DNA of 64,000 nt from Escherichia coli (GTDB taxonomy: Bacteria > Pseudomonadota > Gammaproteobacteria > Enterobacterales > Enterobacteriaceae): assembly GCF_044324875.1 (NCBI RefSeq), contig NZ_CP172185.1, one strand, 5' to 3'. The translations under genes and the position numbers were made by a program. Positions 7,965 to 11,276 of this stretch are shown here, piece by piece. Below the pieces are notes generated by a model. It saw only the letters and a list, made by a program, of their open reading frames with translations. It did no database searches and was not told where the DNA came from. Every line of letters begins with the position of its first letter. The first letter of the stretch is position 1.

Positions 7965-8015
7965 TGAACTGCACCCCAAATGTTGGACATAATCTGACAT
8001 CTGAAGGTGCAGTTT

Positions 8016-8537
8016 ATGAAACATTCATTTGAAGTAAAACTTGCCGCTGTAAATCATTACCTGGCCGGTCATGCAGGCATCATTTCTACGGCAAAACTCT
8101 TTCAACTTTCTCACACCAGCCTCTCACACTGGATTAATCTTTTTCTTCTTCACGGTCCTCGGGCACTGGATTGCAGACACAAGCGTAGCTATTCTCCTGA
8201 AGATAAACTTTGCGTGGTTCTTTATGCTCTCGGGCATTCTGAGTCTCTACCCCGGGTAGCTGCCCGGTTTAACATTCCCAGCCACAACACGGTTAAAAAC
8301 TGGATAAAAGGCTACCGCAAATCTGGTAATGAGGCCTTTATCAGGCGCTGGAAGGAGAAAAGCATGACCCGTTCTGATGATACCCATGAAAACGAGGCAA
8401 ACATGACGCCGGAAGAGATGAAGAATGAGCTGCGTTATCTTCGCGCAGAAAATGCATATCTGAAAGCCATGCAGGAGCATCTCCTGGAAAAAAAGCGCCA
8501 GGAGCTGGAGAAAAAACGAAAGTCATCCGGAGCCTGA
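8016..8537 (+). CDS. IS3-family transposase OrfA (HTH / leucine-zipper part)
   Basis: 173-aa translation MKHSFEVKLAAVNHYLAGHAGIISTAKLFQLSHTSL... recognised as IS150-group OrfA. Confidence 0.85.
   Translation: MKHSFEVKLAAVNHYLAGHAGIISTAKLFQLSHTSLSHWINLFLLHGPRALDCRHKRSYSPEDKLCVVLYALGHSESLPRVAARFNIPSHNTVKNWIKGYRKSGNEAFIRRWKEKSMTRSDDTHENEANMTPEEMKNELRYLRAENAYLKAMQEHLLEKKRQELEKKRKSSGA
8489..8495 (+). other. Programmed -1 ribosomal frameshift heptamer A AAA AAG (orfA to orfB)
   Basis: A_AAA_AAG sits in the orfA zero frame (codons GAA AAA AAG); the -1 frame then reads ...RSTLYYQLSLQKAKDKYA, a typical OrfB N-terminus. Confidence 0.7.
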
Positions 8538-8637
8538 GGTGCGGATACTGCCAGTCTGATCTGTTAAAGGCTGCAGGGCTGGCCAGAAGCACGCTGTACT
8601 ACCAGCTGTCACTGCAGAAGGCTAAGGACAAGTATGC

Positions 8638-8775
8638 TGCAAAATGGCATCTGAATCGATCGCAGTTTGGCATTCGAATCGATCATGATTTGGCATCCAT
8701 CTCCGATCACAGTTTGGCATCACAATCGATCACGATTTGGCATGCTTCCGATCATTGATTGGCATCCTGCCAGTC
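8638..8775 (+). repeat. Six tandem 22-24 bp direct repeats at the IS21-family left terminus
   Basis: Units of the form nnnnTTTGGCATnnnnnnCGATC repeated six times. Confidence 0.8.
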
Positions 8776-8839
8776 ACTCCGGGAATTAACTCTTTTCACC
8801 ACAGTCTCCATTGCCGTGTTTAAACCAGTGGAGACGTCA

Positions 8840-10405
8840 ATGTCCAGAAAGAGAAAATCCAGGAGCACTATGGAAACCTGTTTTAAGATCCTTCAGCTCA
8901 AGTTCGACAAGAAGCTGACTAACCGTTGTATCGGACTGACGTTACACATCAGCGCCTCAACCGTTTTTGAGGTTCTTGCCCGCTTCAAAGCCTCTTCTCT
9001 GTCATGGCCATTACCTGCTGATATATCCCATGACACGCTGGAGAAACTCATTTTTCCGCCCAAAGACACCTTTGCATCAGAGCTTGTAATGCCTGACATG
9101 TTGTACTTCGATACGGAAATGAGAAAACCAGGTGTGACGCGGCAACTGTTGTGGATGGAATACAAGGCACAGGCGGGTAACAAAGCGATGGGATACTCGC
9201 ACTTCTGCCGTTGCTACCGGGAGTGGAAAAAAACGCGACGTCTCTCCATGCGCCAGGAGCATCGTGCCGGCGAAAAGCTTTTTATCGACTTCTGTGGTCC
9301 TACGGTTCCTGTTATTAATCCGGACACCGGTGAGATACGCCGCGTGGCAATCTTCGTGGCCGTAATGGGGGCGTCCAACTATACCTACGTTGAAGCGTGC
9401 GAAGGTCAGGACATGATGTCATGGTTAAATGCCCACAGCCGTTGCCTGACCTTCCTGGGCGGCGTACCGAAGCTGCTCATCCCCGATAACCTCAGAAGCG
9501 CAGTGAAAAAGGCCGATCGATATGAGCCTGTCATCAACGACAGTTATCAGGCACTGGCTGAGCACTATGGCACGGTTATCATCCCGGCCCGACCACGCAA
9601 ACCTAAAGATAAACCAAAAGCAGAAAACGGCGTCCTCATCGTTGAACGATGGCTTCTTGCCCGCATCCGTAATGAAACCTTCCACACGCTCAGGGCGCTG
9701 AATGCGCGCCTTAGGGAGTTACTGACAGACATGAATAACCGGCCAATGAAGGGGTACGGCAATCAAACCCGTGCAGAACGCTTCCGCATACTGGATGCGC
9801 CAGCACTCTCTCCGCTGCCTCTGGCACCTTATGAATACACGGAATACAAAGCTGTGAAGGTTGGCCCTGACTACCACGTTGAATATGCCCGTCACTGGTA
9901 CTCCGTTCCACACGAACTGGTCGGTCAGCGTCTGTCACTGAAGGCGGGGCAGTCGGTGGTACAGCTCTGGCACAAGGGGCAGTGTGTGGCGCAACATCCG
10001 CGCAGCACACATGAATATAAACACACAACCAATCCGCTTCACATGCCAGAGCGCCACCGGCAGCACGGGACATGGACACCGGAACGCCTGATCGAGCAGG
10101 GAAAACGTACGGGCCCGTCCACAGGCCGGGTGGTTGAATCCATGCTGAAGGCAAAACCCCATCCGGAACTGGCTTATCGTGCAGTTCTGGGGCTGCTGGC
10201 ACTTCAGAAAAAATACGGCCCGGAACGGCTGGAAAAGGCCTGTTACGTTGCCCTGCACTATAACGCCCCTGACAGACGCTTTATCGACAATCTGCTGCGT
10301 CACCATCGGGAGAACCTGGAGCTTCCATTATCCCGCCAGGGCGAACAACATCCGGCATATGCTTCAGAGCATGAAAACCTGCGTGGTCCGGGCTACTACC
10401 ACTGA
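8840..10405 (+). CDS. istA: IS21-family transposase IstA (track ORF starts at 8759; ATG 8840 has a GGAG Shine-Dalgarno)
   Basis: Translation MSRKRKSRSTMETCFKILQLKFDKK... with N-terminal HTH and central DDE-integrase region (...FIDFCGP..., ...IIPARPRKPKDK...). Confidence 0.8.
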   Translation: MSRKRKSRSTMETCFKILQLKFDKKLTNRCIGLTLHISASTVFEVLARFKASSLSWPLPADISHDTLEKLIFPPKDTFASELVMPDMLYFDTEMRKPGVTRQLLWMEYKAQAGNKAMGYSHFCRCYREWKKTRRLSMRQEHRAGEKLFIDFCGPTVPVINPDTGEIRRVAIFVAVMGASNYTYVEACEGQDMMSWLNAHSRCLTFLGGVPKLLIPDNLRSAVKKADRYEPVINDSYQALAEHYGTVIIPARPRKPKDKPKAENGVLIVERWLLARIRNETFHTLRALNARLRELLTDMNNRPMKGYGNQTRAERFRILDAPALSPLPLAPYEYTEYKAVKVGPDYHVEYARHWYSVPHELVGQRLSLKAGQSVVQLWHKGQCVAQHPRSTHEYKHTTNPLHMPERHRQHGTWTPERLIEQGKRTGPSTGRVVESMLKAKPHPELAYRAVLGLLALQKKYGPERLEKACYVALHYNAPDRRFIDNLLRHHRENLELPLSRQGEQHPAYASEHENLRGPGYYH

Positions 10406-10421
10406 CAGAAGGAACAACAGT

Positions 10422-11177
10422 ATGAGTGATAACCTGTTAAACAAACTGACCCAACTGAAACTCCCGGCGATGGCCGGGAGCCTGATACGGCAGCGGGAAA
10501 CGCCTCAGACCTACGACGAACTGTCGTTCGAGGAAAGGCTGACGCTGCTGGTTGATGACGAGCTTCTGAGCAGGGAAAACAGCCGTGTGGCACGGTTGAG
10601 AAAAAATGCCGGCCTGAAATACCAGGCAACACCGGAAGGGCTGCGCTATCCGGCCTCAAGAGGTCTGCGGGCTGAACAGATGAGAGAACTGCTGAACGGC
10701 CACTACATAACCCACAGGAAAAACCTGCTGATAACCGGTCCGACAGGATGTGGCAAGAGCTGGATAGCCAATGCGCTGGGCGAACAGGCATGTCGACAGA
10801 AACACAGCGTCCGGTACTGTAGAACCGGGCGATTACTGGAACAACTGGCTCAGGGACGTGTTGATGGCAGCTGGCTGAAATATCTGAAACAGTTGCAAAA
10901 AATACAGGTTCTAATCCTGGACGATCTGGGGCTGGAACAGTTAAGTAACGCCCAGTGTAATGACCTTCTGGAGCTCATAGAGGATCGTTACGGACAAAGC
11001 AGCACGATAGTGGTAAGCCAGTTCCCGGTAGATAAATGGCATGGTCTGATGGAGAACCCAACAACAGCAGATGCCATCCTGGACAGACTGGTACATAACT
11101 CACACCGAGTGGTCCTTCAGGGAGAGTCACTGAGGAAAAATCCCCCGGTAGTGGAAAGCAGCGAAAAAACGCGTTAA
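10422..11177 (+). CDS. istB: IS21-family ATP-binding helper protein IstB
   Basis: 252-aa translation MSDNLLNKLTQLKLPAMAG... with Walker A GPTGCGKSW and Walker B VLILDDLG; starts 17 bp after the istA stop. Confidence 0.85.
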   Translation: MSDNLLNKLTQLKLPAMAGSLIRQRETPQTYDELSFEERLTLLVDDELLSRENSRVARLRKNAGLKYQATPEGLRYPASRGLRAEQMRELLNGHYITHRKNLLITGPTGCGKSWIANALGEQACRQKHSVRYCRTGRLLEQLAQGRVDGSWLKYLKQLQKIQVLILDDLGLEQLSNAQCNDLLELIEDRYGQSSTIVVSQFPVDKWHGLMENPTTADAILDRLVHNSHRVVLQGESLRKNPPVVESSEKTR

Positions 11178-11199
11178 AAAGCGGTAGAAAAAGTTAAGT

Positions 11200-11276
11200 T
11201 CCCGGTTGATCGAATGGATGCGAATCGCTGATCGGACTTCGATGCCAATCCGTGATCGAATAGAGCGGAATACGCA
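11200..11276 (+). repeat. About three inverted copies of the same repeat unit at the IS21-family right terminus
   Basis: Reverse complement reads TGCGTATTCCGCTCTATTCGATC / ACGGATTGGCATCGAAGTCCGATC / AGCGATTCGCATCCATTCGATC. Confidence 0.7.

Follow-up and report, generated by a model that had tools for sequence, protein, structure and literature searches.

Multiple terminal repeats that bind the transposase IstA and follow one another at 23-bp spacing are a described trait of the IS21 family (PMC10122671, PMC11208146). The structurally solved case is IS5376, in which repeats are spaced by 23 bp and two complete repeats are required for integration; each repeat contains two boxes, CS1 and CS2, about 10 bp apart, which are read by HTH-2 and HTH-1, respectively, and the catalytic subunits of the IstA tetramer sit on R1 while the structural subunits sit on R2 (PMC10122671). 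It has also been suggested that the presence of several terminal repeats helps to hold the transposase in autoinhibition up to the arrival of the helper, IstB (PMC11208146). The role of extra sites has been called an open question for Tn7 and is untested for IS21 (PMC10122671).

The window is the whole 64,000-nucleotide stretch of Escherichia coli DNA that we analysed. It contains a single copy of a common ISSso4-type element of the IS21 family, and the repeats at the two ends of this copy are known in kind, being the terminal repeats of that element. A preliminary description of the window, made from the sequence, had reported six repeats at the left end and about three at the right and had mentioned the IstA-binding terminal repeats of the family. 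Its coordinates, counts and consensus were accurate, and the trait it mentioned is the one described in the two papers cited above.

Element, boundaries and terminal units

The element is an IS21-family member by its IstA, its IstB, its TG...CA tips with a target duplication and its multiple terminal repeats of about 23 bp. IstA scored 284.6 bits against the NCBIfam model NF033546 'IS21 family transposase' (transpos_IS21; cut-off 160) and IstB scored 257.8 bits against NF038214 'IS21-like element helper ATPase IstB' (cut-off 200). Since both proteins lie above the curated cut-offs, the assignment of the arrays to IS21-family termini in the preliminary description stands. As listed in Table 1, the two genes lie on the same strand; istB starts 16 nt downstream of the istA stop codon. 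In the identical copies of the element PGAP places the start of istA at the second ATG, at 8870, which gives a protein of 511 aa. More than 5,000 homologues of IstA were found at E <1e-20, and among the 120 listed, almost every full-length protein was about 505–520 aa long.

Table 1. Positions of the element, its terminal units and its genes in the window.
Feature	Position	Strand	Remarks
Target-site duplication GTATGC (6 bp), left copy	8632..8637	.	From the sequence; uninterrupted IS1397 reads through ...AAGTATGCTG...
Complete ISSso4-type IS21-family insertion sequence	8638..11276	+	2,639 bp; TG...CA tips
L1, tip unit, TGCAAAATGGCATCTGAATCGATC	8638..8661	+	Matches of other copies start at its first base
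L2, GCAGTTTGGCATTCGAATCGATC	8662..8684	+	83% identical to L4
L3, ATGATTTGGCATCCATCTCCGATC	8685..8708	+	75% identical to R2
L4, ACAGTTTGGCATCACAATCGATC	8709..8731	+	Repeat search
L5, ACGATTTGGCATGCTTCCGATC	8732..8753	+	Repeat search
L6, innermost left unit, ATTGATTGGCATCCTGCCAGTC	8754..8775	+	Second half-site degenerate, without GATC (CGATC missing)
Left inner box, ACTCCGGGAATTAACTCTTTTCACC	8776..8800	+	Inverted counterpart at right end; kept in the 73%-identical relative L009
istA, DDE transposase	8840..10405	+	521 aa from first ATG; NF033546, Pfam rve and Mu-transpos_C_2
istB, AAA+ helper ATPase	10422..11177	+	251 aa; NF038214, PF01695 at 2.4e-60
Right inner box, reverse complement AACCGGGAACTTAACTTTTTCTACC	11183..11207	-	Inverted repeat of left box
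R3, AGCGATTCGCATCCATTCGATC (minus strand)	11208..11229	-	Pattern scan
R2, ACGGATTGGCATCGAAGTCCGATC (minus strand)	11230..11253	-	Repeat search, pattern scan
R1, tip unit, TGCGTATTCCGCTCTATTCGATC (minus strand)	11254..11276	-	Retains subgroup-typical tip TGCGTATT(T/C)CG
Target-site duplication GTATGC, right copy	11277..11282	.	From the sequence

The best sequence matches of IstA in the PDB were 8b4h and 8q4d (E ~7e-14), the structures of IS5376 IstA, with an identity of only ~19%. The AlphaFold model of IstA (pLDDT 74) predicts N-terminal helical bundles at residues 11–51 and 64–134, followed by the DDE core and a beta-barrel. The best fold matches of this model were again 8q4d and 8b4h, with 386–408 alignment columns on targets of 352–373 residues, and the next were 8rdu, a type V-K CRISPR-associated transposon assembly, MuA and TnsB. 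No significant Pfam match was obtained for the N-terminal HTH domains, the best being HTH_23 at E = 0.18. In the model a C-terminal helical region (helices 404–487; IstA residues ~400–521, window 10040–10405) is extra with respect to IS5376.

The terminal TG occupies 8638–8639 and the terminal CA occupies 11275–11276, as expected of IS21-family tips. The empty site is known, as intact IS1397 copies are continuous over the insertion point (...AAGTATGCTG...). Matches of other copies begin at window position 8636–8638, which confirms the left boundary, and both the flanks and the neighbouring genes differ between copies. Four other insertions of ISSso4-type elements are bounded by target duplications of 6–7 bp (GCCAGA, GTTATT, ATCTAAG and CTCAGGC); in these, as in the window, the duplications directly adjoin the arrays. 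The tips, the 6-bp duplication, the empty site in IS1397 and the differing flanks place the arrays inside the true boundaries of the IS, contrary to the possibility raised in the preliminary description that the repeats lie outside them. The host of the insertion is itself an IS, a copy of IS1397 (IS3 family) at 8007–8637 and 11283–12009, with orfA at 8007–8537 and orfB split by the insertion. The junction between IS1397 and the ISSso4-type element was absent from all 5,426 complete E. coli genomes searched. It thus appears to be either a private insertion or one whose source lies outside these genomes.

The left end consists of six contiguous direct units of the form nnnnTTTGGCAT-n5-7-CGATC, which begin at the first base of the element and have lengths of 24, 23, 24, 23, 22 and 22 bp from L1 to L6. 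The right end consists of three inverted units, running from 11276 back to 11208. Two half-sites are conserved in each unit of ~23 bp, TTGGCAT and CGATC, with their centres ~11–12 bp apart. R2 and R3 keep both of them (TTGGCAT or TTCGCAT, and CGATC); R1 keeps CGATC but reads TTCCGCT where TTGGCAT is expected. Tandem Repeats Finder reported at the left end a period of 23 (4.3 copies) and a super-period of 47 bp (2.4 copies, 83% matches), and a repeat search returned five copies there, spaced by 23, 24, 23 and 22.

The strict repeat pattern of the preliminary description was found to be exact in L2 and L4 and to fit L1 with one mismatch, but the other units deviate from it by ±1 in spacer length, and with two mismatches allowed it was not enriched in the window as a whole (6 matches vs 7.6 expected). 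Because the spacer length varies, the informative pattern is the phase-shifted GATCN5TTGGCAT. With at most one mismatch it gave 10 matches in the 64-kb window, seven of which lie in the two ends, while shuffles gave 1.53 ± 1.32 matches and none of 100 reached 10. A chain test, in which an 8-mer (at most one mismatch) must recur in steps of 20–26 bp upstream of istA and downstream of istB, returned six left units and three right units for this element.

Directly inside both arrays lies an inner box of ~25 bp (CCGGGAAnTTAAC...TTTTC), which is inverted between the two ends. Relatives L011–L017 have a T-rich inner box of their own, common to their left and right ends. The box may be a site for a host factor or a degenerate or inverted unit. 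The tip units L1 and R1 are only 43% identical to each other. The right tip retains the subgroup-typical TGCGTATTCCG and the left tip reads TGCAAAATGGCAT, so the tips are more asymmetric here than in the relatives. GATC, the Dam methylation site, is present in eight of the nine units (at 8658, 8681, 8705, 8728, 8750, 11208, 11230 and 11254); at the left end there are 5 sites in 97 bp, vs 4.3 per kb window-wide. Control by Dam methylation was considered, but the corresponding half-site of the relatives is GATCAC, GAACAC (e.g. in Aeromonas and Photobacterium lipolyticum) or GTGAC(C), without a clean link to Dam-positive hosts. Methylation-sensitive binding of IstA is conceivable and is mentioned here as a lead only.

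Unit number in copies and relatives

Records with at least 80% of the element numbered 232 for plasmids and 297 for E. coli (225 genomes). Among the matches listed, 26 plasmid and 19 E. coli rows are full-length copies (2,639 bp, 100% coverage) with 100% identity; they are carried by Escherichia plasmids and chromosomes at many sites and are annotated 'IS21-like element ISSso4 family'. The copy in Shigella sonnei pMHMC-001 is 2,638 bp long and 96.3% identical, with six units on the left, three at the other end and CTCAGGC as its 7-bp duplication. Its IstA and IstB are labelled by PGAP as ISSso4 family, and a tentative isoform status of the window element is taken from this 96.3% identity over 2,639 bp, the species-level name calling for about 95% or more over the full length of the reference element. 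A more distant relative, 73% identical, survives as its left part only in an E. coli chromosome (L009; NZ_CP137696.1, 3201–3475). Its left units likewise number six and have a TTCGCAT core; L1, L5, L6 and the inner box are recognisable at matching positions. This relative, which occurs in some E. coli chromosomes, also carries a tandem duplication of 12 bp (AGGAGCACTATG) where istA begins.

By these comparisons six left units are the standard allele of the element. The preliminary description had suggested that the high number might reflect repeat expansion, which does not hold here: the observation it had named as refuting, the same number in other copies, was made in the 100%-identical copies, the 96.3%-identical S. 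sonnei copy and the 73%-identical relative. A recent expansion in this genome is likewise rejected, since identical six-unit copies are common elsewhere. L2–L3 are 84% identical to L4–L5 over 45 nt. This resemblance, together with the 83% identity of L2 and L4, points to an old duplication of two units (47 bp) as the source of the six-unit state, probably one older than the divergence of the lineages that are now 73–100% identical. One further record was set aside: NZ_JBXSPU010000008.1 (1–2636), 'plasmid unnamed8' of E. coli ESDR8, was considered as a plasmid or an IS circle, but it is a linear contig of 2,636 bp that contains the IS only, and is almost certainly a collapsed-repeat assembly artefact.

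One genome per species was scanned, which yielded 80 loci with IstA 42–54% identical (89% at one locus). The chain test gave left chains of 3 units at 8 loci, 4 at 42, 5 at 9, 6 at 3 and 7 at one locus, and in control windows internal to istA of the relatives the chain was never longer than 2 (n = 75). Of 201 steps between units, 179 measured 23 bp. Anchoring on TGCGTATT(T/C)CGG showed that the arrays of the relatives start at the tips. In the 55 tip-anchored relatives the left end has 3 units in 5 cases, 4 in 37, 5 in 9, 6 in 3 and 7 in one, and tip-anchored right ends have 2 units in 4 cases, 3 in 18, 4 in 6 and 5 in two. The modes are therefore 4 (left) and 3 (right) units, and in most relatives the left array is the longer of the two.

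At least six left units occur in only 7% of the 55 relatives, so that six copies are indeed on the high side, as had been noted, and the distinct subgroup offered in the preliminary description as an explanation was recovered: its IstA is ~510–520 aa long, its typical arrays number 4 left and 3 right units, and 6–7 also occur. High left counts include those of Maribrevibacterium (6), Rheinheimera (7) and a MAG of a bivalve symbiont (6). Among near-identical elements, left counts of 6, 5 and 7 units are found in Maribrevibacterium, Alishewanella and Rheinheimera, respectively, with units that alternate in pairs, so the same two-unit dynamics act there too. In the bivalve-symbiont gammaproteobacterial MAG (L072, ~2188–2446) inverted copies of the unit (CGGAATGAGTGTTCAC) stand between the six-unit left array and istA; such inverted units after the left array were not seen in the window's element. 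In the sequences compared, contiguous arrays of 3–7 left and 2–5 right units in strict 23-bp phase are thus a trait of the ISSso4-like subgroup with long IstA.

Close relatives of the window element differ from it by whole units only, with 3, 4 or 5 units on the left. Four units are found in a plasmid remnant of ETEC H10407 and in pLR-21-1_2, where a loss of 47 bp has fused L2 and L4, and three units in an E. albertii remnant, with a loss of 70 bp; further remnants have five and four left units. All 3-unit and 5-unit cases seen are truncated elements. The 4-unit form exists as full-length elements of 2,592 bp at three distinct sites, each with its own target duplication. In pLR-21-1_2 and in an ETEC1730 plasmid, which share one site, istA and istB are intact and the duplication is GCCAGA; in the NCTC9008 chromosome the genes are also intact (ATCTAAG), and in the C4 chromosome they are decayed (GTTATT). 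Full-length 4-unit elements with duplications of their own, and with intact genes at two of the three sites, indicate that four left units are enough for transposition.

Homologous exchange between units has repeatedly altered unit number in these relatives. By sequence comparison, the 4-unit type with the L2/L4 fusion (L001, L008 and L091) arose from the six-unit form by a deletion of 47 bp. In two other 4-unit alleles (L092 and L094) the second unit would call for either two events or a history of another kind.

Proposed mechanism and rival explanations

Very probably, the arrays are best explained jointly as the terminal repeats of an ISSso4-type IS21 element in which one IstA binds per unit, the inner units are accessory and six is the standard allele. 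By analogy with IS5376, to whose IstA the window protein is homologous (~19% identical), each unit would be bound by one IstA monomer, whose two N-terminal HTH domains would contact TTGGCAT and CGATC. Points against this are the low identity to the IS5376 protein, the non-significant Pfam result for the HTH domains, and the half-sites missing from R1 (TTGGCAT) and L6 (CGATC). L1–L2 and R1–R2 would then build the IstA tetramer that carries out synapsis and cleavage at the terminal CA, and IstB would deliver the target DNA, insertion into which would leave the 6–7-bp duplication. L3–L6 and R3 are candidate accessory sites, which probably load extra IstA cooperatively over the region that separates the left tip from istA. 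From the 23-bp spacing, with a rotation of ~68 degrees per site, we infer that five to six sites make about one superhelical turn; this agrees with a published discussion of a repeat spacing that favours supercoiling (PMC10122671). Such a six-site turn could lend stability to the left end, set it apart from the right one, or gate transcription into istA. The accessory sites may serve architecture and discrimination of the ends, autoinhibition, or insulation of istA from incoming transcription.

The last of these roles can be taken further, to the reading that the inner left units are mainly an operator or insulator at which bound IstA represses or blocks transcription that reaches istA from outside or from a junction promoter, the asymmetry of the ends then reflecting regulation and not the architecture of the transpososome. 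The array does occupy the stretch from the tip to istA, ending 64 bp before the start, and most relatives have a left array that exceeds the right one. A scan detected no sigma-70-like promoter in or next to the left array (1.8 expected in shuffles); transcription would accordingly have to run through it. A third unit is present at the right end as well, where there is no gene to regulate, and we regard this reading as somewhat unlikely. A passage of PMC9330008, citing Reimmann 1989, states that expression of IS21 depends on a junction promoter formed in tandem copies; inspection by eye of the hypothetical junction of right end and left end of our element gave no convincing -35/-10 pair.

Because the 4-unit elements have transposed, two or more of the six left units are dispensable, and these could be neutral. 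Extended to all left units beyond about two, this would make the extra units products of slippage or unequal exchange, gained and lost randomly and without a role. The clean whole-unit differences (3, 4 or 5) among close relatives, the full-length 2,592-bp elements with four units at three sites (both genes being intact at two), and the 6, 5 and 7 units in the closely related elements of Maribrevibacterium, Alishewanella and Rheinheimera are what such a process would produce. Neutral units should, however, decay in sequence and phase, and the inner units keep both half-sites and strict 23-bp phasing. Moreover, no tip-anchored relative drops below 3 left units, and only 5 of the 55 go down to that number, the mode being 4; the six-unit state persists over lineages 73–100% identical; and arrays of 3 and 5 units were seen only in truncated remnants. 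That the extra units lack any role is accordingly improbable.

Unit number might also be an evolvable dial of transposition, set by the number of accessory sites at the left end, with the six-unit form proliferating and the 4-unit forms as derivatives of low activity. The 4-unit left end was found as a single unbroken match in 29 records, with one place per record in 27 of them, and six-unit records reach 17–29 matching places, where 'places' include fragments and the difference is confounded with lineage. These numbers are suggestive only, and we consider the dial unlikely. If it were true, the natural ISSso4 alleles with 3, 4, 5 and 6 units would offer an existing series in which the accessory repeats could be tested.

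A mini-CRISPR, plasmid iterons or a structured RNA, separate from the transposon ends, are extremely improbable identities for the array, and only its superficial look of direct repeats of ~23 bp speaks for them. The same units recur inverted at the other end of the element, and the array starts at the IS tip. As a CRISPR array it was rejected because the units abut and have no spacers. Iterons were rejected because the array lies within the IS boundaries, is mobile to many plasmid and chromosomal sites and has istA and istB as neighbours, not rep or cas. A structured RNA was rejected because a search of 8000–12000 found nothing in Rfam at E up to 1.

The arrays shared by the whole subgroup and their whole-unit polymorphism are a useful but modest addition. 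Correct annotation of the ends of this widespread enterobacterial IS guards against miscalls as CRISPR or iterons. The alleles also form a natural series for accessory transposase sites in the IstA/IstB system, which is MuA/MuB-like and for which the solved structure of the core complex contains just two sites at each end.

Comparison with known systems

The nearest described element is ISSso4 of S. sonnei, so labelled by PGAP, which has the same istA–istB layout and the same six left and three right units in 2,638 bp vs 2,639 bp, and differs from the window element by ~3.7% nucleotide divergence. IS21 of R68.45, the prototype of the family, likewise has asymmetric multiple terminal repeats, with more on the left than on the right. 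It has fewer units (3 and 2), an IstA of ~390 aa and a length of ~2.1 kb. Its repeats are reportedly L1–L3 and R1–R2 (Reimmann et al. 1989; Berger & Haas 2001).

IS5376 of Geobacillus stearothermophilus (8b4h and 8q4d) shares with the window element a DDE IstA with a beta-barrel, an AAA+ helper IstB, and direct terminal repeats spaced by 23 bp with two boxes per repeat and a terminal CA (PMC10122671). A tandem-HTH N-terminus is common to both transposases, being predicted in that of the window. IS5376, however, has two repeats per end (L1/L2 and R1/R2) and a 5-bp duplication, whereas the window element has 6 + 3 units and duplications of 6–7 bp, and the window IstA is ~120 aa longer, with a helical C-terminal extension in the model. 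Outside the family, Mu (MuA sites L1–L3 and R1–R3) and Tn7 (three TnsB sites on the left and four on the right) also have asymmetric multi-site ends. MuA and TnsB are related DDE transposases with an AAA+ partner, and only their tip-proximal sites take part in the catalytic core. The sites of Mu and Tn7, which belong to another family than the window's IS, are unevenly spaced and partly separated, whereas those of the window element are strictly contiguous at 22–24 bp.
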